Shown piece after piece: positions 43,741 to 58,465 of a DNA stretch of 64,000 bases. The stretch is taken from contig OZ220089.1 in NCBI GenBank assembly GCA_964291625.2, positions 576,001-640,000 of the forward strand. Direction: 5' to 3'. The stretch's first letter is position 1. Every line of letters begins with the position of its first letter. The notes beneath the pieces are model-generated. The model was not told where the DNA came from. It saw only the letters and a program-made list of their open reading frames with translations, and searched no databases. The position numbers and the translations under genes were made by a program. Source of the DNA: Candidatus Latescibacterota bacterium (lineage in GTDB: Bacteria > Latescibacterota > UBA2968 > UBA8231).

Positions 43741-43977
<237 letters not shown>

Positions 43978-44832
43978 TCAGTGTTCCGGGTGGGCGGCCA
44001 TGTTCACGAACAGGGCCGTGAGCAGCGTGAAGATGAAGGCCTGTATGCAGGCGATGAAGATGTCCAGAAGGTAGAGAGCCGCCGCCAGCGCCACCGAGGC
44101 CGGCGCCACCCAGTAGCTCTTGAGCATGATGATCATGCCCAGGAAGACGAGGATGGCGACGTGGCCGGCGATCATGTTGGCGAAGAGGCGGATGCACAGG
44201 GCGAAGGGCCTGGCCAGCATGCCGATGATCTCGATCGGCACGAGGATGATCAGCAGCGGCGCCGGCACCCCCGACGGCACCAGGTTCTTCCAGTGGCCGA
44301 AGAAGCCGTTGTTGAGGATGCCGGCCCCCTGGGCGACGGCGAAGGAGATCAGGGCGAGGGCGGCGGTGACGCTGATGTTCCCCGTCGCCGTGGCGCTGTA
44401 CGGCAGCAGGCCGAAGAGGTTGCAGTACAGGATGAAGAAGAAGACGGTGAGCAGGAACGGGAGGTAGGCGCGGCCGCCCTCTCCCATGACCGGCAGGACG
44501 ACCTCGTCGCGCAGGAAGAGGACGATCGTCTCGAGAAGGTTGGCCAGGCCCGACGGCACCAGGGCGGGGCGGCGGAAGCAGGCCAGCATGGTGAGGACGA
44601 GGAGCCCGCTCGCCAGCCACATGACCAGCACGTGGCGGGTGATGGACATGTCGACGCCGAGGATCGGCTCGGCCAGTCCGAGCGCCTCGGACAGGCCCCT
44701 CAGATCGATGTGACCGTCGAAGATGTGGTGGGCGTTGACGAAGGGCACCTCCAGGTAATCGTGGTCCAGGACGTGCCCGATTACGTCTACTTGATTGTCC
44801 GCGCCGTCGGCGGCGGACGCCTCTCCTGCCAT
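43978..44832 (-). CDS. atpB: ATP synthase Fo a
   Basis: NLFGLLP, TGNISVT, IRLFANMIAGH, IQAFIFTLL. Confidence 0.95.
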   Translation of the reverse strand: MAGEASAADGADNQVDVIGHVLDHDYLEVPFVNAHHIFDGHIDLRGLSEALGLAEPILGVDMSITRHVLVMWLASGLLVLTMLACFRRPALVPSGLANLLETIVLFLRDEVVLPVMGEGGRAYLPFLLTVFFFILYCNLFGLLPYSATATGNISVTAALALISFAVAQGAGILNNGFFGHWKNLVPSGVPAPLLIILVPIEIIGMLARPFALCIRLFANMIAGHVAILVFLGMIIMLKSYWVAPASVALAAALYLLDIFIACIQAFIFTLLTALFVNMAAHPEH

Positions 44833-44922
44833 TGACTCCACCCGGGAGTGGCCAGGGGTACTGGGAACAAGACTTGAGAAGTTGCGGAACTTGGCGGTTG
44901 GCCCTGTTGCGCGGCCGGGAGA

Positions 44923-44951
44923 AAAATGTGTGTGCCCCGAGGTCTTGTCAA
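44923..44951 (-). promoter_or_regulatory. Candidate internal sigma70 promoter upstream of atpB
   Basis: TTGACA-N17-CATTTT on minus strand in the 125-bp gap. Confidence 0.4.
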
Positions 44952-44957
44952 CAGCAC

Positions 44958-45254
44958 TCAGGGCCGCGGGGGGCGGCCGGCGCCGCGGGCCACGAGGACC
45001 ACCTCCAGGGCGAGAAAGACCAGGTAGGCCACGATCAGGCCGGCGGCGTACCCGGTCCTGTGGGTATCCGTGAACCACAGCAGAACGAGGGAGACGGCGG
45101 CCACCAGCAGCAGCCTGGCCGCGGTGCCTCCGAGGATGGCGACCACGAGGGCCCGGGGGTGCCTCGCGCCGAGGCGCAGACCGATCCAGGCGATGACGGC
45201 ACTGGCGGCGGCCACCAGGACTCCGGCCGCGGCGGCGATCCATGGATCCTGCAT
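44958..45254 (-). CDS. Small membrane protein, AtpI-like
   Basis: 3-4 TM segments, GGTAARLLL; position before atpB. Confidence 0.55.
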   Translation of the reverse strand: MQDPWIAAAAGVLVAAASAVIAWIGLRLGARHPRALVVAILGGTAARLLLVAAVSLVLLWFTDTHRTGYAAGLIVAYLVFLALEVVLVARGAGRPPRP

Positions 45255-45256
45255 GA

Positions 45257-45505
45257 TCAATCCCCTTCCTCGAGATCGTTCGGACGATCGCCGGAGACCA
45301 GGGCCCGGCAGACCTGGTAGAAGGCGGCCACGGCGCCGACGAAGGCCCCCGCGAGCAGCAGCCACGGCGACGTGTCGAGCTCGCCGTCGGCCCACCACCC
45401 GGCGGCGGCGCACACGACCACGGTCACCGCGAACTGCACGCCGAGACCGGCCAGGCGGCCGACCTCTCGAAGCGCCCCCGGCTGCCCGCCGTCCCCGGGA
45501 CTCAC
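45257..45505 (-). CDS. AtpZ/AtpI family protein
   Basis: AGLGVQFAV...GWWADGELDTSPWLLLAG; GTG start overlaps nuoN stop. Confidence 0.8.
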   Translation of the reverse strand: MSPGDGGQPGALREVGRLAGLGVQFAVTVVVCAAAGWWADGELDTSPWLLLAGAFVGAVAAFYQVCRALVSGDRPNDLEEGD

Positions 45506-46908
45506 CGGAACCCCGCCGCCGCCCCGGCGATCTCCGCCGCCCGGGCCACGGGCGCCGGCCACAGGCCCAGCAGCAGCAGCAGCCCGGCGCTCAGGAGCGC
45601 CGCCGAAAGGCTCCCCGCATCCGGCGCCGATGTCCCCGCGGTCTGCTCCCGCCCCCAGGCGACGTGGGCCGCGAAGCGGAGGAAGACCCAGGCGCTGAGC
45701 AGAGCGTTGGCCAGCAGCAGCACGGAGCCCGCCGACGGGGTCTCGACCAGACCTGCGAACAGCGCCGCGCGGGCGGGAAAGGCAGCCGTGGGCGGCAGGC
45801 CTGCGAGGGCGATGAGGCAGACGCACAGGGCGCCGCCGGCCAGCGGCTCGCGGCGGGCCAGTCCGGCCGCCGTCCCTCCCCGGGCGATGGAGCCGCTCAC
45901 CGCCAGCCCTCCCCCGAGGGCGAGGACCGCCGCCGTGAGTTGCAGCCACAGGCCGGGAGACGGGCCGGGGCCCGCCGCCAGGGCCGCCAGGCCGTATCCC
46001 GCCTGGATTACCACGCCGTACCCGAGCAGCGCCGTGAGCCTCCGCCGCCACAGGGCCAGCAGGTTGCCGGCCGTCACCGTCACCAGCGAGGCCGCCAGCA
46101 GCAGCGACGGCAGGTCCGGACGGACCTCCGCAAGGATCTCCACCAGCCGGCCCCCGACCACCAGGGCCGGCACCACGGAAACAGTCACCGTCAGCATCAC
46201 CGCCGAGGGTGCGCATCCGGCGCTGATCCCGCCCACCCAGTAGTGGAAGGGCACGACTCCGGCGCGCACGGCGAGGCCCGTCAGCAACAGACCTCCCCCG
46301 GTGACGGTCATCGCCGCGGACCCGGCGTCCATGCCCCTCGTCAGTTGTTCCCACTGGGAGGTGCCGGCTCCCGCCCACAGGCAGGCGATGCCCAGGAGGG
46401 TCAGACCCGTGGCGGCGGCCATGGGACCGGCCTGGCGCAGGGCGGCGCGGCTGGCGGCGGCGGGTCCGAGGGCGTTGCCGGCGATCAGACTCGCGGAGGA
46501 CAGCTCCAGACCGACGAACAGGACCACGAGATCCCGGGCGGAGACGGCTACCATGGCGCCCAGGACCCCCAGGGCCGTCAGGACGCCGGCCGCCGCCCGG
46601 ACACCGGCCGGGGCGGGAGAGCCCGCCGCCAGCAGGCCCGCGAGCACGGCTCCCCCCAGGATCAGCAGGTCGGCGAAGGCGGCCACCGGATCGGCGTACA
46701 GCAGTCCGTGCCGCCCCAGGGAGACGGGGTCCCAGGCCTGCAGCGACAGGGACAGGGCCACCAGCAGGCCCCCGAGGGTGAGAACGGCGGGCGCGCGGCC
46801 GGGACGACGGGGCCAGAGCACGGCGTCGAGCAGGGCCAGGCCGATGGCCAGCAGTCCCAGGCTCGTCTCCGGCGCCAGGTCCGGGCCCGCCAGGTCCGTC
46901 CATCTCAC
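45502..46908 (-). CDS. nuoN: Divergent complex I subunit N
   Basis: APETSL, DLVVLFVGLELSS, VPFHYW, GNLLAL...RLTALLGYGVVIQAGY, LAGLPPTAAF; GTGA coupling. Confidence 0.75.
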   Translation of the reverse strand: MRWTDLAGPDLAPETSLGLLAIGLALLDAVLWPRRPGRAPAVLTLGGLLVALSLSLQAWDPVSLGRHGLLYADPVAAFADLLILGGAVLAGLLAAGSPAPAGVRAAAGVLTALGVLGAMVAVSARDLVVLFVGLELSSASLIAGNALGPAAASRAALRQAGPMAAATGLTLLGIACLWAGAGTSQWEQLTRGMDAGSAAMTVTGGGLLLTGLAVRAGVVPFHYWVGGISAGCAPSAVMLTVTVSVVPALVVGGRLVEILAEVRPDLPSLLLAASLVTVTAGNLLALWRRRLTALLGYGVVIQAGYGLAALAAGPGPSPGLWLQLTAAVLALGGGLAVSGSIARGGTAAGLARREPLAGGALCVCLIALAGLPPTAAFPARAALFAGLVETPSAGSVLLLANALLSAWVFLRFAAHVAWGREQTAGTSAPDAGSLSAALLSAGLLLLLGLWPAPVARAAEIAGAAAGFR

Positions 46909-48362
46909 GGGCGGATGCCCTTCACCTGCGCGGCCGGGGCCGCCTTCACCCCCGGCTCGCCGGAGGTCGGGGGACCCGGCCGCATGCGCTCGATGACCGG
47001 CCGGGCCCCGGACAGCAGCGGCTCCGGGCGCAGACCGACGACCCCGGCGGTGACGATGAGCAGCGCCAGAACCCGGCCCAGGGCCCCGCGGCCGGACGAA
47101 ACCGGTCTCCGCGCCAGATCCACCACCGGATCGAGGAGCGCCACCGCGAGGACTCCCGATGAGAGGATGAGGAGCCAGCCCAGGCCCGGGTGGACTGACA
47201 GGACCCCCGCCACCAAGGTCAGCCAACCGGGCAAGGCCCCGCCCCCCGGGACGGCGGCCACGGTCAGACCCAGGGCCAGCCAGGCCCACGCGGTGCGCAG
47301 ACCGCCCGCTCCCCGGTCCTCGATCCACAGGGCGAGAAGGAGCAGGGAGGCGCGCGGCAGGGCGATGCCCGCGGCCAGGGCCGCGGCTCCCAGAGCCTGG
47401 AGGCTGCCTGGCGCGAAGAGACCGGCAGCCACCAGGCCGCCGGTGGAGGCCACGGCCAGGGCCGCCCGCGGGGACAGGCCGGGACGGGGCTGGACAACCG
47501 CCAGCATCGCCGTCCAAAGGGAGCTCGAGCCGGCCCACAGGACCAGCCACGTCGAGGCCGCCAGGGCTTCGGCCGGAAACAGGGCCAGCCAGAATCGCAG
47601 CAGACCGAAGGCTCCCACCGCGCACCAGGCGCCGGAGATCAGGATCCGCCCGGAGAGGGCGCCGGACGTGCACACCGGGACCAGCCAGGTATGGAACGGC
47701 ACCAGGGGGATCTGCATGGCCAGGGCCGCCGCCGCCAGCGCCGCCGCCGGCCCCCCGTGGGAGACGTCCGCGGCGGCGAGCTTGTCAACGAGGGTGCAGC
47801 CGTTCCCGGCGCCGCACAGGGCCGCGGCGGCGGCCAGCATCAGGGACCCGCTCGCCGCCCAGTGGGCGAAGCGGCGGCCGGCGCGCCCGCTGCCCGCTTC
47901 CCGGTCCAGGCCGAGGACCGCCGCCAGGGCCAGACCGGCGAGACCGTGGCCGGCGGCGGCGACCATCAGATCGCGGGTGGTCAGCACCAGGGCCATCCCG
48001 CCAGCGCCCGTCAGGGCCAGGGCCAGCCGGGCCCGGCTGGGCGCCCCCCCGAAGCGGCCCTCCACGCTCACCGCCAGCAGCAGCACCGCCGCCAGGGCCA
48101 GCAGGGCGTAGCGGTTGAGGCCGTCGATGGCCAGCGCCAGCCCGGAGCCCGTCGTCGCCAGCCACGGGGCGGTAGACCCCCAGGAGAGCTCCCGGCCGTG
48201 GGCGGCCTCCAGACATGAGAGGCCGGCGAGGAGCAGCAGACCCGCCGCGGCGGCGGTGGAGACCCTTCTTGCGGCGAGCCCCCGCAGCGGCGCCAGGGCG
48301 AGGCCCAGGGCCGCGCACAGAGGCAGCAGGACGATGCCCAGGGTCACGAAGGAGACGTCCAC
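46905..48362 (-). CDS. nuoM: Divergent complex I subunit M
   Basis: LAIDGL, PLVPFHTWL, VGAFGLLRF, VPGG; gene order. Confidence 0.7.
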   Translation of the reverse strand: MDVSFVTLGIVLLPLCAALGLALAPLRGLAARRVSTAAAAGLLLLAGLSCLEAAHGRELSWGSTAPWLATTGSGLALAIDGLNRYALLALAAVLLLAVSVEGRFGGAPSRARLALALTGAGGMALVLTTRDLMVAAAGHGLAGLALAAVLGLDREAGSGRAGRRFAHWAASGSLMLAAAAALCGAGNGCTLVDKLAAADVSHGGPAAALAAAALAMQIPLVPFHTWLVPVCTSGALSGRILISGAWCAVGAFGLLRFWLALFPAEALAASTWLVLWAGSSSLWTAMLAVVQPRPGLSPRAALAVASTGGLVAAGLFAPGSLQALGAAALAAGIALPRASLLLLALWIEDRGAGGLRTAWAWLALGLTVAAVPGGGALPGWLTLVAGVLSVHPGLGWLLILSSGVLAVALLDPVVDLARRPVSSGRGALGRVLALLIVTAGVVGLRPEPLLSGARPVIERMRPGPPTSGEPGVKAAPAAQVKGIRP

Positions 48363-48363
48363 C

Positions 48364-50043
48364 TCAGCGGCCCTCCATGCACCACAGGACCACGAGCACC
48401 ACCCCCGCGGCCAGGGCCGCCGGCCAGAGCCGCCGACTGGCGTGCTCCGCCCACGCCAGCGCCCAGCCCGCGCCGCGGAGAGCCAGGCCCAGGGCGCCCC
48501 AGGCGGCGCCGAGGACGGCGCCGTCGACGAAGGTCCACAGCCCCCGGCCCAGGGAGATGGCCGCCACGGCGACCCCCTGCTGAGCGGCGCCGGCGCCAAA
48601 CCCGCCGGCGGCAAACCGGCGCGCGGCCGAGGCCGGCCGCAGGGCCGGGTTCAGACCCCGGCGCCAGATCAGGACGGAGATCCCCACGGCCGCGGCGTTG
48701 GCCGCGGCGGCCAGTCCGAATCCGTCCAACGGGGGCGCGGGCAGGCTCATCCAGGCGAGGACGGGCAGAGCCGCGAAGACCAGCCCGGCCGAGATCGATC
48801 CGGCCGCGGTCGGGAGAGCCGGCCGGACCACCTCCTTCGCGGCGGCCCGTGGAACCGCCCCTGCAAAGGGGGCGAGGGCGAGCCGGCCCATGGCGAGGAC
48901 CGACAGGGCGAATGGGGCCAGGACGGCGGCCATCCCCGCGGGTCCGTAGCCGCCATAGGCATGCTTCAGCAGGAGTGCCTGACCCCAGAGCCCGGTGAGG
49001 GAGAGGACCGGGACCAGGACGGCGGCCAGGCACATCCACCGGGCCGCCGGCAGGGAGCCGCCCAGGCCGCCGAGCTGGTTTAGCCGCACCACCGCCGGGA
49101 GGGCGGCCCTGACCAGACCGAGGCCCGCGGCCAGGCAGAGCCGGGCGCCCAGGGCCGTGCCCAGCACCAGCCATCCCGCGATTGGATCGGCTGCGGCCGC
49201 CGCCGCCGCCAACCCGGCCTGGGCCGCCGCGATCCAACCCGGGATCCGCCGCAGTCCGCCGCTTGCCAGGGCCGCCGCCGAGGCGGCTGCGGCCGCCGCT
49301 AGGCCGACGCCGAAGACCACCTCCTGCAGGGGTCCCGCCAGTGGGCCGGACCGGGACAACAGGGATGCGCCGGCCACGGCCAGAACGCTCGCCGCGGCGC
49401 CGGAGGCCGGGCAGGACGACACCTCCAGGATCCACTGGTGGAGCGGCCAGGCGCCGAGGCCGATGACGGCGGCGAGGATGAGCAGACCTGCGGCCGGTTC
49501 CGCGTTCCAGGCGATGCCTTCGTGAGGGCCGCCTCCCGCCATTGAGGCAGCGGTTGCGGCCAGCAGGGCCACCGAACCGATTCGAGTCAGCAGCAGCAGG
49601 CGGCGGGCTCCGGCTTCGGAGACGTCCCCGGACCTGGCGGCCGTCACCAGGAGGGCGGCGACGGCGATCTCCCATCCCAGCAGCAGGGGCAGCCAGTCGG
49701 CGGCGCACGACAGCAGGACCACTCCCATGGCGGCCACCGTGACCATGGCCCGGTGGACTCCGTCGATGGCCGGCTGAGCCAGCGGATACAGCAGACCGGC
49801 GACGGCGGCGGCCCCCAGGGCAGCCGCCGCGGTCCCGTCGGCGCGCAGGCCGAACCCGAGGCTGGCGCCGCCCGCGGGACCGGCGCCGACCGCTCCCCCT
49901 GCGAACCCGGCGGCGGCAAGGCATGCGAGGAGCCGCAGAGCGTGGGCGGGCCTCGGCCGTCCGGCAAGGTCGGCGGCGGCGGCTCCGGCGAAGGCCAGGA
50001 GGACGGCGGCGAGGGCCGCACCGAGAGTCTGCGCGTCGGTCAT
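48364..50043 (-). CDS. nuoL: Divergent complex I subunit L
   Basis: LLGWE, LTRIG, WPLHQW, LNQLGGL, LTGLWGQ; gene order. Confidence 0.7.
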   Translation of the reverse strand: MTDAQTLGAALAAVLLAFAGAAAADLAGRPRPAHALRLLACLAAAGFAGGAVGAGPAGGASLGFGLRADGTAAAALGAAAVAGLLYPLAQPAIDGVHRAMVTVAAMGVVLLSCAADWLPLLLGWEIAVAALLVTAARSGDVSEAGARRLLLLTRIGSVALLAATAASMAGGGPHEGIAWNAEPAAGLLILAAVIGLGAWPLHQWILEVSSCPASGAAASVLAVAGASLLSRSGPLAGPLQEVVFGVGLAAAAAASAAALASGGLRRIPGWIAAAQAGLAAAAAAADPIAGWLVLGTALGARLCLAAGLGLVRAALPAVVRLNQLGGLGGSLPAARWMCLAAVLVPVLSLTGLWGQALLLKHAYGGYGPAGMAAVLAPFALSVLAMGRLALAPFAGAVPRAAAKEVVRPALPTAAGSISAGLVFAALPVLAWMSLPAPPLDGFGLAAAANAAAVGISVLIWRRGLNPALRPASAARRFAAGGFGAGAAQQGVAVAAISLGRGLWTFVDGAVLGAAWGALGLALRGAGWALAWAEHASRRLWPAALAAGVVLVVLWCMEGR

Positions 50044-50312
50044 GGGTGGGGCGCCTGTCCTGACTTGCCGGCAGCCTCCCGGCGGACCAGCGCCAGCACG
50101 AGGCCGGCCTGGGCCCCCGCCGCGGCGACCGCGGCGACGGCCAGCACGCGCCCCTCCCCGCCGAGGAGCGTCACCACGGCCAGCACCCCTCCGAGGATCC
50201 CCACCTGCCCGGCCACCAGCGGCGCCAGGGCATGAGGCCGGAGCAGCGCGGCCCCGACGCCGGCGGCCAGGAGCAACGCCGCCAGCGCCAGGACCCATGC
50301 GGTTGCGGTCAC
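50040..50312 (-). CDS. nuoK: Divergent complex I subunit K
   Basis: 90 aa, 3 TM, AVAAAGAQAGLVLAL; order J-K-L. Confidence 0.6.
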   Translation of the reverse strand: MTATAWVLALAALLLAAGVGAALLRPHALAPLVAGQVGILGGVLAVVTLLGGEGRVLAVAAVAAAGAQAGLVLALVRREAAGKSGQAPHP

Positions 50313-50758
50313 GAGGCTTCCATGCCGGGACCCGGCCGCCGCGAGAGGGCGCCGACCCCGACCACCGCCGAGAGCAGCAACAGGGCTCCGAGGGCGAGGA
50401 CCAGAACGCCGCTGCGCGGCGGCTCCGCGGCAGGGGATGGTCCAGCAGCCAGGCCGGCGGACAGGGCCATGGCCAGGACCACCCCCAGCCCCGCGACCAC
50501 GACCGCCGACAGCAGCCGCGTCGGACGGCTCGCGGCGCTGGCGGCCAGCGCCGCCGGGGACGAGGCCGCCAGTCCCACCGCCGCCTGCACCAGGAGCACG
50601 GCGGCGGCGGTGAAGGCGTCGTGCACGGCGGCGATGGCCGCCACCCCGGCGGCGGCGAGACCGAGGCCGACGCAGGCGCCGTGGGCGGAGCGCCAGCAGG
50701 CGGCGGCGAGGGCGCCTCCACCGGCGGCGGCGGTCGAGGCAAGCAGGATCAGTTCCAC
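50309..50758 (-). CDS. nuoJ: Divergent complex I subunit J
   Basis: 149 aa hydrophobic; SAHGA, LLLLSAVVGVGALSRR; order H-J-K. Confidence 0.55.
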   Translation of the reverse strand: MELILLASTAAAGGGALAAACWRSAHGACVGLGLAAAGVAAIAAVHDAFTAAAVLLVQAAVGLAASSPAALAASAASRPTRLLSAVVVAGLGVVLAMALSAGLAAGPSPAAEPPRSGVLVLALGALLLLSAVVGVGALSRRPGPGMEAS

Positions 50759-51681
50759 GGCAGCCACCCCGCGGAGCGGAGGACCGAGAGGGCGAGGTCG
50801 ACCAGGGCGAGGGGGACGATGCGCGTCCAGGCCGTGCGCGCGAGCCCGGCGGGCGTGCCGTCCGACAGGCTGGGACCGATGGCCACCGCCGAGGCCAGCA
50901 CCGCGGCGGCGGTCACAGCGGGCAGGATCTCCACCCATCCGGCCGCCCCCGGCAGGCCGCCGCCGAACAGGTGGCAGGCGAGGAGGGCGGCCGCCCCCAG
51001 CTGCAGATGCCGCGACAGGGACAGCCACAGCGGGCCCGTCCCGGAGGCCGGACGCAGTCCGGCCCGGCGCCCGCCGAGCACCGATCCGGTGCAGCGGCAG
51101 AGGACGGCGAGGGCCCCGACCCAGGCCGCCACCCCCGCGGGATGGGACCACAGGGGCCAGTCCCCCGGGGCGCGGGAGTACGCCGCCAGCACCGGAACGC
51201 CGTCGGTGACCAGCGCCGCCGCCACCAGCAGAAAGGCCAGGTGGCAGCCCATGATGGTCACGGCGCCCGCGCTCAGGGACCGGCGCCCCTCGGCCCCGGC
51301 GAAGGCCGCCGGCAGCATCCAGGCCTGGGCCGAAACCCCCAGCAGGGCCACCAGCACCAGCGCCTGCACCGCTCCCCCCGCGGTGGCCGCCCCCTGGGGA
51401 AACAGCCCTCCCACCCCCGCGCCGGGGGGCAGAAGAGCGACCAGGGCAAGGGCGGGCAGCAGGGCGGCGAAGGCCGCGGCACCCGCTCCGGGGGCCGGCC
51501 TCCCCGATCGTGCCATCACCTTTGCTGCGTCGGCCACGGGACCGAGGAGCGGCGGACGGCGCAGGCCGGTGACTCGGGCCCTCGCCGCACGCTCGACGAT
51601 GGCGCTGCCGTAGGCGAGACCGAGGCTGCCGAGGAGAGCGAGGAAGGCGCCGCCGGAAGAGATGTCGGCGGATGAGGTCAC
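50749..51681 (-). CDS. nuoH: Divergent complex I subunit H
   Basis: ER..ARV, GPVADAAKV, HP, LFGGG, AWTRIVPLALV. Confidence 0.65.
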   Translation of the reverse strand: MTSSADISSGGAFLALLGSLGLAYGSAIVERAARARVTGLRRPPLLGPVADAAKVMARSGRPAPGAGAAAFAALLPALALVALLPPGAGVGGLFPQGAATAGGAVQALVLVALLGVSAQAWMLPAAFAGAEGRRSLSAGAVTIMGCHLAFLLVAAALVTDGVPVLAAYSRAPGDWPLWSHPAGVAAWVGALAVLCRCTGSVLGGRRAGLRPASGTGPLWLSLSRHLQLGAAALLACHLFGGGLPGAAGWVEILPAVTAAAVLASAVAIGPSLSDGTPAGLARTAWTRIVPLALVDLALSVLRSAGWLPWN

Positions 51682-53288
51682 GGCCGGCTGACGAGGTCGG
51701 CGGCGGGGACCTGGCCGGAGCGCCGCAGCCAGCTCGTCCAGCCGCCGCCGAAGGCGGGCCCCGGCGTCGGATGGTCATCCCCGTCGAGGGTTTGGTAGTC
51801 GAGTCCGGCGAAAGGTTCGTGACGGGTCCGGGCCAGCCGCGCGAAGAACTGGTCGGCCGAATCGCGGTTCGGACCGCCGTGCCAGAGGGCGCTGAGGATC
51901 CACAGGTCCGGTCTGGCGTCGCCGGGGGGCTCGACGGCGGAGCGGACCCGCCGCACCCGTCCGAGGCCGTCGACGAAGGTGCCCTCCTTCTCGGTCCAGG
52001 CGCTCCCGCCCGCCAGGGCGATGACGGCGCCATCCACCAGCGGCGACGGGGTGAGGTCGTGGGAGATGAGCCGCGTCTCCCGGCCCCGGAGGATGCCCGG
52101 GCCCTCTCCGCACAGCGAGCCTCCCACGGCGTACACCACGTCGAGGCCGGCGGGGAGGTCGGGCGCCGGAAGCGGGGACGATCCCGTCGCCCGGGCGACG
52201 GCCCGGACGCCGGCGGCGTTCGGCCCTTTGGAGGCGCTGATCGTGAACCCTCCGGGAAAGACGCGGTCTCCCCCGGGATCCGCCTCCTCCCACAAGTAGA
52301 GCTCCGCCTTCCAGCGGCGGGCGAGCTGGATGAGCAGGAAGGCCTCCTCGTTGGTCAGGTAGGGGCTCAGGATCACCGCGGAGCGGCGCCCCTGCTCCAT
52401 CTCTTCGGCAACACCGGCCAGGGCCGTGTCCCAACCCGCCTCCCGGCCCTCCCGGCGCGGAGCCAGCAGGCGTTCGCCCTGCGGCTGCCAGCCGTAGCGG
52501 CCGTGATCGCACAGCCAGAAGCCGCCGGCCGGATCCTCCGGCCGGGGCTTGACCCTCCACACGCGGCCGTCGTGCACGTCCACCCGGGTGGCGCAGCCGC
52601 TGGCGCACCCGGCGCAAACGCTGGAGACCCCCGTCAGCCGCCACGGCGGCGGCGCCTCTCGTTCATCGGGATCGCTCAGGGCGCCCGCCGGGCACAGGTC
52701 CAGGAGGTTGCCGGTCATGGCCCCTGCGATCCGATCACCGGCGCCGGCGCCGATGCGGGCGCCGGCCCCGCCGCCTTCGACGGCCAGGCCCGGCTCCCCG
52801 GAGACCTCTTCGCCGAAGCGGACACAGCGGGTGCACAGGATGCACCGACGGCGGTCGAGGATCAGCCTCGGCCCGAGGACGAGGCGCTCCGGCTCTCCCG
52901 GCCCCACCGACGGCGTTCGGCCGCCCCCGGCAACCCGCACCGCTTCCTGCAGCTCGCACTCGCCGGCCCGCTCGCAGACGGCGCAGTCCGCCGGGTGGCG
53001 CAGCAGCAGGTCGTCGAGCACGCGCTCGCGCGCCGCCGCCGCTTCGGGCGCATCGAGGGAGACCGACATCCCCCCGCGGACCCCCTGGTTGCAGACGGTG
53101 ATCAGCTCCGGACCCCCCGGCCCCTCCAGGGAGGCGACGCACAGACGGCAGGAGGCCGGTGCCGAGAGGGCCGGATGGAAGCAGGGGTGCGGCAGCTCGC
53201 GGCCAGCCGACAGCAGGGTCGTCAGGAGGTTCGCCCCCTCCCGAGCCTCCACGGCCTCCCCGTCCACATGGATGGTGACGATGGCCAT
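51678..53288 (-). CDS. nuoG: Complex I subunit G-like Fe-S protein (short form)
   Basis: CFHP..SCRLC..C, HPADCAVCERAGEC, CILCTRC..CP, CAGCASGC..LCDHGR, EKEGTF; own ATG in TGATG overlap. Confidence 0.85.
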   Translation of the reverse strand: MAIVTIHVDGEAVEAREGANLLTTLLSAGRELPHPCFHPALSAPASCRLCVASLEGPGGPELITVCNQGVRGGMSVSLDAPEAAAARERVLDDLLLRHPADCAVCERAGECELQEAVRVAGGGRTPSVGPGEPERLVLGPRLILDRRRCILCTRCVRFGEEVSGEPGLAVEGGGAGARIGAGAGDRIAGAMTGNLLDLCPAGALSDPDEREAPPPWRLTGVSSVCAGCASGCATRVDVHDGRVWRVKPRPEDPAGGFWLCDHGRYGWQPQGERLLAPRREGREAGWDTALAGVAEEMEQGRRSAVILSPYLTNEEAFLLIQLARRWKAELYLWEEADPGGDRVFPGGFTISASKGPNAAGVRAVARATGSSPLPAPDLPAGLDVVYAVGGSLCGEGPGILRGRETRLISHDLTPSPLVDGAVIALAGGSAWTEKEGTFVDGLGRVRRVRSAVEPPGDARPDLWILSALWHGGPNRDSADQFFARLARTRHEPFAGLDYQTLDGDDHPTPGPAFGGGWTSWLRRSGQVPAADLVSRP

Positions 53289-54602
53289 CAGAACCGCACG
53301 TGGATGCTCTCGGGGGACTTCATGGACAGATCCTTGGCCACCGGGCAGCCGCCGTCCAGATGGGCCTCGAACTCCTCGGCGAAGGCGGTGGCCAGGGCGC
53401 TGATCGGCGGAACTTCCGAGGGGTCCGTGCCCGCACAGAGCCAGGGGCGAGGTGAGGGACGCGGCCCTGGAGCGCAGCTGCTCCAGCTCCCCGGCCTTCG
53501 AGGCTCCGGCCTCGAGCCGATGGAGGACGCCGGCGGCCCAGGCGAGGCCCTCGCGGCATGGCGGGCACTGGGCGCAGGACGCGCCGGCCAGGTAGGCCGC
53601 CACCAGCCGGGCCGTGTCCACGGCGCAGACCGTCTCGTCGGCGACGATGACGGCGCCCGAGCCGAAGTCGCCTTCGAGGCCGCCGCCGCCGGGGCTGCTC
53701 CAGGCCCCGGGATCGACGGGCCGGTCGAGATCGGCCTCGCGCAGCACGGGCCGGGAGCCGTACCCGGAGTGGAGGACGAACTTCAGGGGCCGGCCATCGA
53801 GCGTACCTCCCGCGAGCCCCTCCACGAGACCGCGGAAGGTGCCCGAACCGAGGGCCACCTCGTACAGGCCCGGACGGCGCACGAGGCCGCTGATGCAGAA
53901 GACCTGGGTCCCCGGCGCCGAGGCGCTGCCCACGGCGCGGAAGGCGGCGCTCCCCCCCGCCAGCACCTGCGGCAGGTAGCCGAGGGTGGAGGCGGTATGC
54001 ACGGCGGCGGGCTCGCCGAAGAGGCTGGTGGCCGGCCCCCGGGTGCCGTCCGCTGCCCTTGGCTCGGGGCGGCCGCCTTCGATCAGGTTCAGGGCCAGGC
54101 TGTCGCCCGCGGCGACCGGGAGGGATCCGGGCACGGGGTGCAGGTGAATGGACAGACCGTGGCCGCCGACCTCTCCCGACTCGCGCAGCTCCGAGAGGGC
54201 CGCGGTCAGGGCCTTCCGGGCCCGCACCGCGTCGGCGCGGATGCAGAGGAAGGCCGCCGAGGCGCCGGTGGCCAGGGCGGCGATGCGCACGCCCTCCAGG
54301 AGCCGGTGCGGGTGCCGCTCCGCCAGCTTGCGGTCGCGGAAACGGGCCGGCTCCGGCTCGAGCAGGTCGGCCACCAGGTAGCGGGCGCCGCCGCGCTCCC
54401 GCAGGGCCTTCCAGCGCTCCCCCACCGGCCGCCAGGAGCCGCCGCGGCCGCGCAGACCGGAGGCCGTCACCTCCTCGACCACCCCGTCCGCTCCCAGGGC
54501 CAGGGCCCGGGCGAGGCCGCCGCCGCCGCGCCGGCGGTAGATGTGGTAGCGGTCGACGTCGGGTACGTCGATGCCCTCGAAGAGCAGGCGGTGCTCGTTC
54601 AC
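53288..54602 (-). CDS. nuoF: Divergent complex I subunit F, frameshifted near 3' end (reads into nuoG as assembled)
   Basis: SGLRGRGG, FCISGLVRRPGLYE, GSGAVIV, SCAQCPPCREG..LC; true tail FAEEFEAHLDGGCP lies in another frame after G4 run 53420-53423. Confidence 0.8.
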
Positions 54603-55018
54603 GCCGCCTCTCCGGAGACAAGGTCGTCGAGACGCGCGGGGGTCAGCCCGTCGAAGAGGCGCCCCCCCCGCTCGAAGGCGGGCGCCGCCGAGCAGACGCC
54701 GAGGCAGGGGGCGGGGATCACCAGGTCCCCGAGACGTTCCCGCAGCCGGCGGCCGACCTCGTCGCCCCCCATGAGCCTGCAGCTCAACCCCGCGCAGACC
54801 CGCACCCGGTCCGCGGAACGGCCGCCGCCGCGGCTGGAGGCGATACCGGCGACGGCGGCGGCCGACAGTCCCGTGAGCCCGGCGATCCAGCGCGCCGCCT
54901 CGGGCTCGCAGGCGCCGCGGTCGGTCAGCACCAGGTCGATGAGGGGCATCAGGGCCCCGGAGGGGCGGGGGTAGCGGCTCAGCAGCTGCCGGGCGCGCTG
55001 CTCCAGGGCCTCGGTCAC
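54599..55018 (-). CDS. nuoE: Complex I subunit E-like 2Fe-2S protein
   Basis: RYP...ALMPL, VCAGLSC, CLGVCSAAP. Confidence 0.8.
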   Translation of the reverse strand: MTEALEQRARQLLSRYPRPSGALMPLIDLVLTDRGACEPEAARWIAGLTGLSAAAVAGIASSRGGGRSADRVRVCAGLSCRLMGGDEVGRRLRERLGDLVIPAPCLGVCSAAPAFERGGRLFDGLTPARLDDLVSGEAA

Positions 55019-56541
55019 CGGTCCATCTCGGAAGCGATGACGTTGAGGCTGGCCACCACCTGCGGTGCCTGGTCGTACCCGAGCCCGGCCAGCAGCGCCG
55101 GGAGGAGGCGGAAGTGGTACAGCGACGGAGAGCGCATGTGGACCCGGGCCGGTCCGCCGGTGCCGTCGGAGACCAGGTAGAAGGCCAGCTCGCCGTCGGC
55201 GGACTCGATGGGGAGGTAGATGTCGTGCCGGACGGGACGATACCCGTGCCCGTCCATCCAGCGCCCGAAGTGGTCGATCAGCTCGGCGGGCTCCGTGGAG
55301 CGCTCCGTCGGCCGGGGGGTCTCGTGCGCCAGGGTCGGTCCGCCGGGGGCTCCGGTCACGCACTGCCGGGCGATGGAGAGGGACTCCCCCATCTCCTCGA
55401 GACGGACCCGCGTGCGGTCGACGATGTCGCCCGAGTCCGCCGTGGGCACGCGGAACCGGACCTCCCCGTACGCGAGATAGGGATCGGTGCGCCGCACGTC
55501 CAGGTCGATACCCGCGGCGCGGGCCACCGGCCCCGTGGCCCCGGCGCCCAAGGCCTCGGCGGCGTCGAGAGCCCCGGCGCCGGAGAAGCGGCGGCGCCAG
55601 TGCCGGTGGTCCACGGTGCTGCGCAGGGCATCCGAGCGCAGCCGGTCGACGGCGCTTCCCAGGTCGGCCAGCAAGCGGATGGCGCCGGCGGGCACGTCGG
55701 CGGCGATCCCGCCGAGGCGCTGGGTGCCGGTGGCCCAGCGGCTGCCGCTGGCGGCGGAGAGGAAGCGCGCCGCCGCCTCCCGGGCGGTCAGGGCCTGGCC
55801 CCACAGGGCGGAATCAGGCCCCGCCAGGTTGGCCAGCCAGGCGCAGTGGGCGCCGACGCGGCCGATCTCGGCCAGCAGCATTCGCACCCAGTTGCACCGG
55901 GGCGGCGGCGTGATCCCCAGCAGGGCCTCGGCGGCGAGGACCGCCGCCAGCCCGGGCGCGGACGGCGCCTGCTCGTTGAGGCTCTCGGCCAGCACCGGCA
56001 GCTGGGCCCATGTGCGGCCCTCGGCGAGTCTCTCGAAGCCGCTGTGGAGCCGTCCCGGGCGGGCCGTGGCGGTCTCGATCCGGCCGCCGCGCAGGCGCGC
56101 CCCGAGGTCGAGCCGGAAGGGGGTGGCCAGGGAGGGATCGTGGATCGGCACCTCCCCCTCCGGCGGCGTTGGAGGCATCTCTCCGGGGACCATGGCCTGC
56201 GAGGCGGAGAAGAGGGGCCGCAGGTCATCCCGCCCCCCGATGCGCATCCCGAAGCGGCCGGCCATCTCCCGCTCCGGCCAGTCGGCGGCTGGCCAGACGT
56301 GGGCCAGCCCCGGCAGCTCGCCGGTGCCGGCGGCGGTCAGCCGGGTGCGGTTGCCCGCCGCCGAGCGGAGCTGGTAGACCGCCCGGAACCGAGGATCGGG
56401 GCTCGCGCCGCCCACGGCGGTGAGGTCGACGAGATGCAGGGTCGGGTCCGCGGCGAGCAGGGCCGCCGCCTGCGCCTCCAGCCGGCCGGCGGAGACCTCC
56501 AGGACCGCCGCCGCGGCCTCCGGCGGGGCGGTGGCCGTCAC
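55015..56541 (-). CDS. nuoCD: Divergent fused complex I subunit C/D
   Basis: DLTAV, WPAADWPERE..FG (C part); LHSGFE, RMLLAEIGR, TGPVARAAGI..DVRR..PY, IESADGEL, RSPS, EMDR (D part). Confidence 0.8.
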   Translation of the reverse strand: MTATAPPEAAAAVLEVSAGRLEAQAAALLAADPTLHLVDLTAVGGASPDPRFRAVYQLRSAAGNRTRLTAAGTGELPGLAHVWPAADWPEREMAGRFGMRIGGRDDLRPLFSASQAMVPGEMPPTPPEGEVPIHDPSLATPFRLDLGARLRGGRIETATARPGRLHSGFERLAEGRTWAQLPVLAESLNEQAPSAPGLAAVLAAEALLGITPPPRCNWVRMLLAEIGRVGAHCAWLANLAGPDSALWGQALTAREAAARFLSAASGSRWATGTQRLGGIAADVPAGAIRLLADLGSAVDRLRSDALRSTVDHRHWRRRFSGAGALDAAEALGAGATGPVARAAGIDLDVRRTDPYLAYGEVRFRVPTADSGDIVDRTRVRLEEMGESLSIARQCVTGAPGGPTLAHETPRPTERSTEPAELIDHFGRWMDGHGYRPVRHDIYLPIESADGELAFYLVSDGTGGPARVHMRSPSLYHFRLLPALLAGLGYDQAPQVVASLNVIASEMDR

Positions 56542-56876
56542 GTTGACTCCGCCGGGGAGGGCCGGCCTTCCCGGCGCCCGACGTGGATCAGGGCGATGAC
56601 GACGACCAGGAGGAGGAGCAGCATCGGGAGAACGGCTCCGGCGCCTTCGGGCCCCGCGGCGAGAAGCACGAGCAGCAGGACGGCGCCGGAAAGGGCCGGG
56701 GCGAGCCAGGCGAGGGGGCGCCACGAGTCCTCGGTCTCCACCTCGCCGCCGCCGGCCATGGCGGACGACGGGGGCTTCCTGGCGGGGCCGGCGAGGGCGC
56801 GCCTCAGCAGCGCGGCCAGGACCCCCAGCAGCAGCCAGAGACCGAGATAGGTGACGAGGGGCAGGTAAGCGGTCAA
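56538..56876 (-). CDS. nuoA: Divergent complex I subunit A-like protein
   Basis: 112 aa, 3 TM, YLP start; first gene of the nuo run, GTGA-coupled to nuoCD; YECG and FDxE motifs absent. Confidence 0.5.
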   Translation of the reverse strand: MTAYLPLVTYLGLWLLLGVLAALLRRALAGPARKPPSSAMAGGGEVETEDSWRPLAWLAPALSGAVLLLVLLAAGPEGAGAVLPMLLLLLVVVIALIHVGRREGRPSPAEST

Positions 56877-56934
56877 CGACCGGCCTCCCGGGGTTGGAGG
56901 TGGTCCCGGCGCCGCGGGAAACCGCCCTTCGGCT

Positions 56935-57195
56935 TCAGACGGTGGCCTTCTCGCGGACCTCCCGGAGTGGCCCCGCGGCGGGGGCCGCGGCCGGGTCGAA
57001 GCGGCCCTCGCGGCCGGTGCCGCAGGAGTCGCCGGGCCGGGCTCCGCACTCGCACATGGGCTCGCCGTCCCCGGTCTGCAGGTTGGCCAGGCCGCCGCAG
57101 GAGCCGGTGATCCTGCGGTTGCCGAGGATCACCCCCACGGCCATGCCGGCGATCACCAGGGTGAAGACGACGAGGGCTGATAGAAAGAGGGTCAT
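56935..57195 (-). CDS. nqrM: Na+-NQR maturation protein (DUF539)
   Basis: One [16 protein letters not shown], further Cys; directly after nqrF. Confidence 0.85.
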
Positions 57196-57226
57196 GGGGG
57201 ACGTGCAAGCACTCGCGGAGGGAGCC

Positions 57227-58465
57227 TCAGCTGCCGAAGTCGTCGAAGCGGATCATCTCCTCTTCGACGCCCAGATCGTCGAGCATGGCGAGGACCGCCG
57301 TGAGCATCATGGGAGGGCCGCAGAGGTAGTACTCGATGTCCTCCGGCGCCGGGTGCTTGCTGAGGTACTCGTCGAGCACGACCTGGTGGATGAACCCGGT
57401 GGGTCCGGTCCAGTTGTCCTCGGGCAGGGGCTCGGACATGGCCACGTGGAAGGAGAAGTTCGGGAACTTCTCCTCCAGGTCGCGGAAGTGGTCCTCGTAG
57501 AACAGCTCCTTGCTCGACCGCGCCCCGTACCAGTAGGAGACCTTGCGCTGCGTGCTCTCGGTGTGGAACAGGTGAAACAGGTGCGAGCGCAGGGGCGCCA
57601 TGCCGGCGCCGCCGCCGATGTAGCACATCTCGCGGTCGGTCTCCTGGATGTAGAACTCCCCGTAGGGTCCGGAGATCGTCACCTTGTCCCCCGGGTCGAG
57701 GGCGAAGGTGTACGACGAGGCCAGCCCCGGGTTGACCTTCTCCCAGCCGCCGGCCTTGCGGTCGATGGGCGGCGTGGCGATGCGGATGTTGAGCATGACC
57801 ATGTCGCCCTCGGCCGGGTGGTTGGCCATGGAGTAGGCCCGCACCACCGTCTCGGTCCCCACCGTCTGCAGGTCCCAGACCTTGAACCGGTCCCAGTCCT
57901 CGTGGAAGCGCGCGTCGATGTCGAAGTCGCGGAAGCTGCACCGGAAGGGCGGCACCTCGATCTGGATGAAGCCGCCGGACTGGAAGTCGAGGGTTTCGCC
58001 CTCGGGCAGCTTGAGGACCAGCTCCTTGATGAAGGTCGCCACGTTGTCGTTGGAGACGACCTCGCACTCCATGCGCTTCACCGAGAACACCTCGGGCGGG
58101 ACCTCGATCTGCATGTCCTGCTTGACCGTGACCTGGCACGAGAGGCGCTCCCCCTCCTTCTCCTCGCGCCGGGTGATGTGCTCCTTCTCGGTGGCCAGGA
58201 TCTCGCCGCCGCCGTCGTGGACCTTGACCCGGCACTGGGCGCAGGTGCCGCCGCCGCCGCAGGCCGAGGAGACGAAGAGTCCGTTGTCGGCGAGCACGTT
58301 CAGCAGCTTGCCGCCCGCCGGGGTGACCAGGTCGCGCTCGCCGTTGACCTCGATGTTGACGTCCCCCGTGGCCACCAGCTTCGAGCGCGCCGCCAGGATG
58401 ACGGCCACCAGGGCCAGGACCACGCCGGTGAACATGCTCACGCCGCCGAGGACGCTGTCGATCAT
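57227..58465 (-). CDS. nqrF: Na+-NQR subunit F
   Basis: [43 protein letters not shown]. Confidence 0.97.

Follow-up and report, generated by a model that had tools for sequence, protein, structure and literature searches.

What does an operon of complex I genes without nuoB and nuoI encode, and why is it kept between the genes for a Na+-pumping NADH:quinone oxidoreductase (Na+-NQR) and those for the ATP synthase? The locus that raises this question, which we call nuo', occupies 45502-56876 on the minus strand of the window, the whole 64,000-nucleotide stretch of DNA analysed here (contig OZ220089.1, positions 576,001 to 640,000; G000:C1:576001-640000 in our coordinates). The genome, G000, comprises 5.9 Mb in two contigs and is deposited as a Candidatus Latescibacterota bacterium. 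Among database matches, the closest public relatives of the window are labelled Gemmatimonadaceae, with two labelled Latescibacterota. We lean towards the reading that nuo' encodes a conserved, cluster-loaded derivative of complex I that would be silenced both as an NADH:quinone oxidoreductase and as a pump, and that would be kept by selection for another role.

Gene content of the nuo' block

The order A-CD-E-F-G-H-J-K-L-M-N, proposed in a preliminary description made from the letters of this DNA, is present on the minus strand. The genes, two features within them and the two flanking genes are as follows, where aa stands for amino acids, nt for nucleotides, ORF for open reading frame and TM for transmembrane helix.

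56538..56876 (-): nuoA'-like small membrane ORF, 112 aa, assigned by position and size only; no Pfam or NCBIfam match; weak hhalign alignment to canonical NuoA (E 0.0095)
55015..56541 (-): nuoCD' fusion, 508 aa, GTG start; PF00346 at 203.8 bits and PF00329 at 47.3 bits
55963..56004 (-): NuoD' residues 180-193, the quinone-site Tyr stretch (now Glu190), from alignments and conservation windows
54599..55018 (-): nuoE', 139 aa; PF01257; four N1a Cys kept
53288..54602 (-): nuoF'; PF01512 and PF10589; four N3 Cys kept, flavin/NADH motifs replaced
53405..53410 (-): 1-nt insertion in nuoF', from a DNA alignment with four relatives
51678..53288 (-): nuoG', 536 aa; PF13510, PF10588, PF22117, PF04879 and PF00384; N1b, N5, N4 and N7-type ligands kept
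50749..51681 (-): nuoH', 310 aa, highly diverged; no Pfam or NCBIfam match; hhalign 87%, E 3.9e-6 over 268 columns
50309..50767 (-): nuoJ'-like ORF, ~150 aa, assigned by position (and size) only; hhalign gives no support (E 0.12)
50040..50312 (-): nuoK'-like gene, 90 aa; weak hhalign alignment (28%, E 6e-4); both membrane Glu read Gln
48364..50043 (-): nuoL', 559 aa; hhalign 98.7%; TM5 Glu kept, Lys/His/Asp positions replaced
46905..48362 (-): nuoM', 485 aa; PF00361 at 26.8 bits; hhalign 99.6%; four charges replaced
45502..46908 (-): nuoN', 468 aa; PF00361 at 67.8 bits; TM5 Glu kept
45257..45505 (-): atpZ-like first gene of the atp operon; PF09527; its GTG start overlaps the nuoN' stop as GTGA
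56935..57195 (-): nqrM, last gene of nqrA-F/nqrM, 58 bp upstream of nuoA'; PF04400; nqrD, nqrE and nqrA also matched by Pfam

Homologues of every peripheral-arm subunit (B, C, D, E, F, G and I) are encoded in the genome: CD, E, F and G within the operon, and B' and I' at unlinked sites. For the membrane arm, H', L', M' and N' are supported by Pfam or hhalign, K' weakly, and A' and J' by position; the ORFs of A', H', J', K' and L' matched no Pfam or NCBIfam family. The best match of NuoCD' in the Protein Data Bank (PDB) is chain 7q5y_B, Aquifex NuoC/D 2 (E 1.2e-52). None of the eleven operon proteins reaches an NCBIfam equivalog cut-off (NuoD scores 252.5 against 360, NuoF 235.1 against 558.65), and NuoB' passes an NCBIfam subfamily model only. 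Databases annotate the derived nuo' genes as ordinary Nuo subunits. An AlphaFold2 model of NuoH', built from an eight-sequence alignment, had a mean pLDDT (predicted local distance difference test) of 43.5, too poor for a fold search.

The junctions leave no room for nuoB or nuoI, in agreement with the preliminary description, and whole-genome scans place no match to either gene in the window. The nuoA' stop and the nuoCD' start overlap as GTGA at 56541-56538, and nuoJ' begins (GTG at 50758 or 50767) before nuoH' has ended (stop at 50749-50751). Four-nucleotide NTGA overlaps are found at seven of the ten internal junctions, and likewise at the nuoN'/atpZ junction.

The G+C content of 45502-56876 is 76.5%, and all six frames of the region hold long ORFs, including two of 1013 and 1100 aa on the opposite strand; each whole-region frame contains 15-36 stops per 3791 codons. 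In such DNA open frames are, taken alone, weak evidence. The nuo' frames as read contain no internal stop, their third-position G+C of 0.85-0.94 resembles that of real genes, and Lys accounts for 0-1.1% of the residues in their proteins. The preliminary description had spoken of eleven open genes without premature stops; the absence of internal stops stands, but the window reads as ten ORFs rather than eleven, F' and G' being fused. In an alignment with four relatives, the window alone carries an additional base near 53407, which shifts the last ~37 nuoF' codons into the nuoG' frame and creates a single 974-aa ORF with NuoF and NuoG domains. In the relatives F' ends in a conserved tail, with a stop that overlaps or abuts the nuoG' ATG.

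Unlinked nuoB' and nuoI'

The two genes absent from the operon are found elsewhere in the genome. nuoB' lies at C1:4614717-4615112 between apbC and prmA, and its product is 36% identical to canonical NuoB; nuoI' lies on C2, at about 471491-471932, between rny and dxr. All cluster cysteines are present: nuoB' retains the CC, C and C(PP) ligands and nuoI' retains two CxxCxxCxxxCP motifs. Both contexts are conserved, with dnaJ-apbC-nuoB'-prmA in 7/7 family loci and rny-nuoI'-dxr in 5/5. In G129 and G084, genomes from other Gemmatimonadota families, nuoI also adjoins rny.

To follow these genes across the phylum, matches to NuoB, NuoI and NuoD were counted in 168 genomes. Each of the nine other genomes in the window's genus gives two matches to NuoB and two to NuoI. 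Five relatives (G005, G007, G025, G029 and G040) possess a single NuoB and a single NuoI each, both unlinked, and their only NuoD is the nqr-linked copy. Family genera without the block also have neither NuoB nor NuoI: all three proteins are absent from genus g9 (0/3) and genus g11 (0/2), with G011, G015 and G037 checked individually. In genus g13, NuoB is found in 4/31 genomes, NuoI in 4/31 and NuoD' in 3/31.

The unlinked copies also keep pace with the operon. The nonsynonymous divergence (dN) of nuoB' between G000 and G075 or G067 is 0.11 and 0.31, compared with 0.025 and 0.094 for canonical nuoB and with 0.11-0.14 and 0.36-0.54 for nuoE'F'G'. For nuoB' and nuoI' together, dN is 3-4 times that of canonical nuoB and nuoI, and near that of the peripheral-arm nuo' genes.

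The preliminary description had considered a complex without NuoB and NuoI, and hence without clusters N2, N6a and N6b, and had named partner genes elsewhere as evidence that would speak against it. A genome-wide search finds such partners; they carry all ligands, co-occur with the operon and are lost with it, and this part of the description does not stand. The second nuo operon that it suggested looking for does exist, as a canonical 11-gene nuoABCDHIJKLMN at C1 ~1.608-1.620 Mb. In G129 and G084 an operon without nuoB and nuoI carries canonical NuoD, NuoF, NuoM and NuoK motifs. Judging from these gene orders, unlinked nuoB and nuoI are thus the ancestral state for nuo', and no sign of an enzyme that dispenses with the two subunits.

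As a separate observation, nuoB' directly follows, and overlaps the end of, a gene for an ApbC/Mrp-type P-loop ATPase (L007 4993-7113; G000:C1 ~4.613-4.615 Mb), an arrangement present in 7/7 family genomes. Relatives of this ATPase serve as Fe-S delivery factors for complex I.

Residues kept and lost

All Fe-S ligands are kept, 36 in total (35 Cys and one His) across E', F', G', B' and I'. Every aligned relative, like the window's genome, has the ligands of N1a, N3, N1b, N5, N4, the N7-type site, N6a/b and N2.

At the flavin site, NuoF' has retained the G-R-G-G turn and replaced the other three of its four flavin/NADH motifs, as judged against G129, G084 and PDB chains. NuoE'F'G' was considered as an NADH module for the 11-gene complex of the same genome and rejected, the flavin site being degenerate. 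At the quinone site, the loss of the NuoD His and Tyr noted in the preliminary description is borne out: the Tyr position is Glu when compared with solved structures and with the genome's own canonical NuoD, and no His lies within three residues of the canonical second His. The NuoH loop motifs, present in canonical NuoH and in NuoH of G129 and G084, are absent from the window's genus and from G065/G066; PF00146 in the window's genome matches only the canonical NuoH gene. The lost NuoD residues and the absent NuoH loops support the earlier suggestion that the complex would not reduce quinone.

The membrane arm has lost most of its charged positions. Both NuoK' Glu positions are Gln. NuoL' keeps the TM5 Glu, with its Lys/His/Asp positions replaced, and NuoM' keeps none of four (TM5 Glu, TM7 Lys, TM8 Lys and TM12 Glu). 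NuoN' keeps the TM5 Glu, has Arg in place of Lys in TM7 and TM12, and has lost the TM8 Lys. The extent of loss is graded by genus: G007, which retains the Tyr and the NuoM Glu and Lys, is the least derived, and G065/G066 and the window's genus are the most derived. In G025 the flavin motif is near-canonical; its 'NuoL' row was left out of the motif comparison as the wrong paralogue. An Mrp-type cation/proton antiporter was ruled out for this arm, as the block contains no MrpE/F/G genes and the charged transfer positions are replaced. A Na+/H+ antiporter, placed between the Na+ pump and an H+-type ATP synthase, was dropped as the leading idea on account of the same replaced residues. Elsewhere in the genome, a separate trio of antiporter-like genes is found at C1:4379026-4382994.

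The former Tyr site has acquired a fixed sequence of its own. Among 25 database homologues in the derived clade it reads L-N-(E/D)-Q in 23, with one of the remaining two aberrant and the other not covering the site; among the other 19 database hits, 18 have Tyr and one has Trp. The Glu/Asp lies within an invariant Q-L-P..L-A-E..L-N-E-Q stretch, and residues 180-193 form the most conserved 14-residue window of NuoD', scoring 0.905 against a mean of 0.668 in an alignment of 21 sequences. These alignments indicate that the former Tyr site is constrained in its new state and is not drifting.

Selection on the nuo' genes

Ratios of nonsynonymous to synonymous divergence (dN/dS) were calculated by the NG86 method; YN00 was unstable for many pairs, and the saturated pair G005 and G007 was left out. 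Compared with G074 and G075, the nuo' genes give dN/dS of 0.24-0.60, against 0.03-0.33 for canonical nuo genes and 0.09-0.24 for nqr. In lower-GC sister pairs, the genes that gave a value range from 0.13 to 0.34 (G067/G070) and from 0.08 to 0.27 (G065/G066), ratios that are rough since dS is above 1 in these pairs. The values are 0.15-0.20 for nuoB' and 0.28 for nuoI'.

Gaps in whole-operon DNA alignments come mostly in multiples of three: four of five events against G068, eight of ten against G074 and 15 of 21 against G075. The remaining events are the window's own insertion, the F/G junction or compensated pairs, and the insertion near 53407 is the sole uncompensated indel within a gene, in all three alignments, whose length is not a multiple of three.

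The preliminary description had argued for residual selection and proposed dN/dS between related genomes as a check. In the genomes compared the ratio runs from 0.08 to 0.6, with no scattered stops or frameshifts, and the in-frame indels and conserved synteny add to the same case. A decaying pseudogene cluster, marked by scattered stops and frameshifts and dN/dS near 1, was rejected on these values, the only frameshift being specific to the window. As far as substitution patterns can tell, the nuo' genes are under purifying selection.

Genomic setting, distribution and ancestry

Upstream of nuo' on the same strand lie nqrA-F and nqrM, and downstream lie atpZ and atpB, E, F, H, A, G and C. The block thus sits between nqrM and the only atp operon of the genome, whose F-type ATP synthase is represented by a single ATP-synt_C match. 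On the coding strand from 44500 to 57600, a consensus scan found no promoter-like or terminator-like site, a result that we take as uninformative.

The surroundings were read as well. Window positions 37373-63279 (-) form a co-directional block of ~25 kb with nqrA-F, nqrM, the eleven nuo' genes, atpZ, an atpI-like ORF, atpB-E-F-H-A-G-(D)-C and a polyprenyl synthase gene. The sole ATP synthase c-subunit gene of the genome lies at 43741-43962 (-), and its product has no Ser/Thr directly after the ion-binding Glu. By this feature the c subunit appears to be of the proton type, although the operon begins with a Na+-pumping NQR.

Related loci were taken from G068, G074, G075, G067, G070, G065, G066, G014, G025 and G007, minus two cut by contig ends. 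The order nqrF-nqrM-nuo'-atp is found in 8/8 of these loci, which span five genera. The span from CD' to N' is 10.8-11.75 kb in the window and in the seven loci with enough hits to measure, and no partial cassette was seen among the loci measured. Most genomes of the family do not have the block, and nqrM is then followed directly by atpZ (3/3 checked), so the nqr-atp linkage is the backbone of the family.

In a NuoD tree of 26 rows, the nqr-linked sequences all lie on one side of a split with support of 99/98. Summed branch lengths leading to the window's genus exceed those of canonical tips several-fold, and G007 is the least derived. The preliminary description had connected the remodelling to a takeover by Na+-NQR. 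The connection is plausible insofar as the derived form occurs only directly after nqrM (8/8 loci) and G129, with the canonical enzyme, has no NqrF match.

Two further groups of sequences were looked at. Distant NuoCD hits in Frankia, Acidobacteriota and Alphaproteobacteria belong to ordinary operons with nuoB and were discarded as relatives of the derived form. G001 and G002 (genus g2) and G059-G062 (genus g16) have another type of nuo operon, with NuoB, NuoD and NuoI a few kb apart and a NuoD 31-34% identical to NuoD'.

Proposed role and alternative explanations

Taken together, we propose that nuo' is a Gemmatimonadaceae descendant of the 14-subunit-type complex I of the phylum, with nuoB and nuoI encoded apart from nuoA-CD-E-F-G-H-J-K-L-M-N. 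Its proteins would be made along with Nqr and the ATP synthase, and would join NuoB' and NuoI' in a complex-I-shaped, cluster-loaded particle. Such a particle would not oxidize NADH at the canonical site, reduce quinone in the canonical pocket or pump protons. The retained role may centre on the peripheral arm and on a re-tooled pocket beside N2, and the membrane arm may serve as an inert anchor. In its most specific form the proposal is that a whole complex I has turned into a conserved pseudo-complex: the Fe-S wire and the shape would be kept, the NADH, quinone and pumping sites erased, and the N2 pocket rebuilt around a fixed acidic residue, with co-expression alongside Na+-NQR and the ATP synthase and a new role in redox chemistry, sensing or scaffolding. 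We hold this fuller version tentatively, as a possibility that falls a little short of an even chance.

Several points weigh against this proposal. A' and J' are not demonstrably Nuo subunits, and H', K' and L' align weakly with their canonical counterparts over some stretches. The off-pathway ligands of N1a and N7 are kept along with the others, so the ligands may have been retained for the sake of folding and not of electron transfer. The catalytic roles of the lost positions in FMN/NADH binding, quinone reduction and proton transfer are assumed here from the complex I literature. The dN/dS of nuo' is clearly relaxed relative to canonical nuo and nqr in the high-GC pairs, and the lower ratios come from sister pairs at high dS. 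Most of the family does without the block, and the direct junction of nqr and atp in those genomes indicates that it is dispensable. Where it is present, coupling to the sole atp operon could by itself select for open frames. The window's own copy carries a frameshift in nuoF', which may be a real mutation or an assembly error. Expression and assembly of the nuo' proteins are deduced from sequence.

The main rival is a relic trapped in slow decay. According to this explanation the function was lost after the Na+-NQR takeover; polar stops and frameshifts are purged to protect the atp genes, misfolded Fe-S and membrane proteins are mildly toxic, and the block persists until a clean deletion removes it. 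The GTGA overlap of nuoN' with atpZ, the single ATP-synt_C match and the lack of promoter-like or terminator-like sites in the consensus scan fit such a polar constraint. The absence of the block from most of the family, with nqr then running directly into atp, fits clean deletion. Decay is also consistent with the disappearance of catalytic residues from all three modules, with a degree of loss that is graded over the genera from G007 to the window's genus, with dN/dS up to 0.5-0.6 for H', J' and L', and with the frameshift itself. Polarity on the atp genes, however, does not account for nuoB' and nuoI', which lie outside the operon and yet are kept with all ligands and dN/dS of 0.15-0.28, and which vanish together with the block. 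Nor would a decaying block be expected to show no partial cassette and a span of ~11 kb in all seven measured loci and the window, or dN/dS of 0.08-0.2 for N', CD', F' and G' in sister pairs. The Tyr stretch, moreover, is the most conserved part of NuoD', with the new residue fixed in nearly all homologues of the clade. On balance we regard a relic as unlikely, though it is the alternative to be taken most seriously.

A working NADH:quinone oxidoreductase with unusual residues, using for example a different quinone or coupling ion, is improbable. The Fe-S chain is complete, every subunit gene is in the genome, and the near-canonical flavin motif of G025 and the Tyr of G007 show that some relatives have lost less. 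In the window's genus, however, replacements affect the flavin/NADH motifs, the His and Tyr of NuoD, the NuoH loops, both NuoK Glu, four of four NuoM charges and three of four NuoN positions, and the genome already holds Na+-NQR and a canonical 11-gene complex. Hardly credible is a complex truly without NuoB, NuoI and their clusters: neither gene is in the operon, but the unlinked copies co-occur with it, disappear with it, evolve faster than the canonical copies and are the sole NuoB and NuoI in five relatives.

Implications

Few machines of bioenergetics are as conserved as complex I. If the favoured reading of a silenced, selected derivative is right, nuo' would be a complex I kept by selection after losing three catalytic functions and none of its ligands, a natural experiment on what the architecture does beyond NADH:quinone coupling. 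Metabolic reconstructions of Gemmatimonadaceae that count nuo' as a proton-pumping NADH dehydrogenase would then be wrong. Nor would a complete operon be a sound measure of complex I in this phylum, where nuoB and nuoI are routinely encoded at unlinked sites. In the survey by Spero et al. (2015; PMC4453560), genomes are scored on the presence of all Nuo subunits, and Gemmatimonas aurantiaca is listed with two complex I isozymes. A full-text literature search over the main texts of one collection of papers found no description of the derived nuo' form or of a pseudoenzyme on the scale of a whole machine.

Comparison with known systems

The 14-subunit complex I of Thermus thermophilus, Escherichia coli and Aquifex aeolicus resembles nuo' in subunit set and order, with CD fused as in E. 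coli and Aquifex, and in all Fe-S ligand motifs; the best PDB matches of NuoF' are NuoF-type flavoproteins. nuo' differs in its unlinked nuoB and nuoI and in its embedding between nqr and atp. It also differs in the features that it has replaced, namely the flavin/NADH motifs of NuoF, the quinone-site His and Tyr of NuoD, the loops of NuoH, the Glu of NuoK and most Lys and Glu of NuoL/M/N.

Similar in organization are the nuoA-CD-E-F-G-H-J-K-L-M operons of G129 and G084, which likewise have no nuoB or nuoI, encode both at unlinked sites and have CD fused. In contrast to nuo', they retain the canonical NuoD His and Tyr, the NuoF flavin motif and the NuoM and NuoK charges, and they are not beside nqr; their NuoD branches are several times shorter than the path to the window's genus. 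The two loci have peculiarities of their own. In G129 (L055, 15513-19475), nuoA-CD-E-F-G-H-J-K-L-M is followed by seven mrp-like genes, the last encoding a 505-aa MrpD/NuoN-like protein, and there is no plain nuoN. In G084 (L056, 2966-19713) the operon is interrupted: nuoA and nuoCD are separated by a 396-aa ORF, E and F by a gap of 1.5 kb, and F and H by a 204-aa ORF, and the locus contains no nuoG match; an ORF there first taken for nuoN matched nothing and was dropped.

The genome's own 11-subunit complex (nuoABCDHIJKLMN, without NuoEFG) shares homologous core subunits with nuo'. It differs in having nuoB and nuoI in place, no E, F or G, canonical NuoD and NuoH motifs, and dN that is 3-10 times lower. 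The genome also contains a second, better-conserved NuoF-like gene (PF01512, 127.7 bits) beside a weak NuoI-like hit, at G000:C1:2588552-2590400.

In the pattern of what is lost and what is kept, nuo' resembles pseudoenzymes, in which catalytic residues are likewise lost while the determinants of the fold, here the cluster ligands, and purifying selection remain. The difference would be one of scale: in nuo' the loss would extend over a whole 13-protein respiratory machine rather than a single protein.

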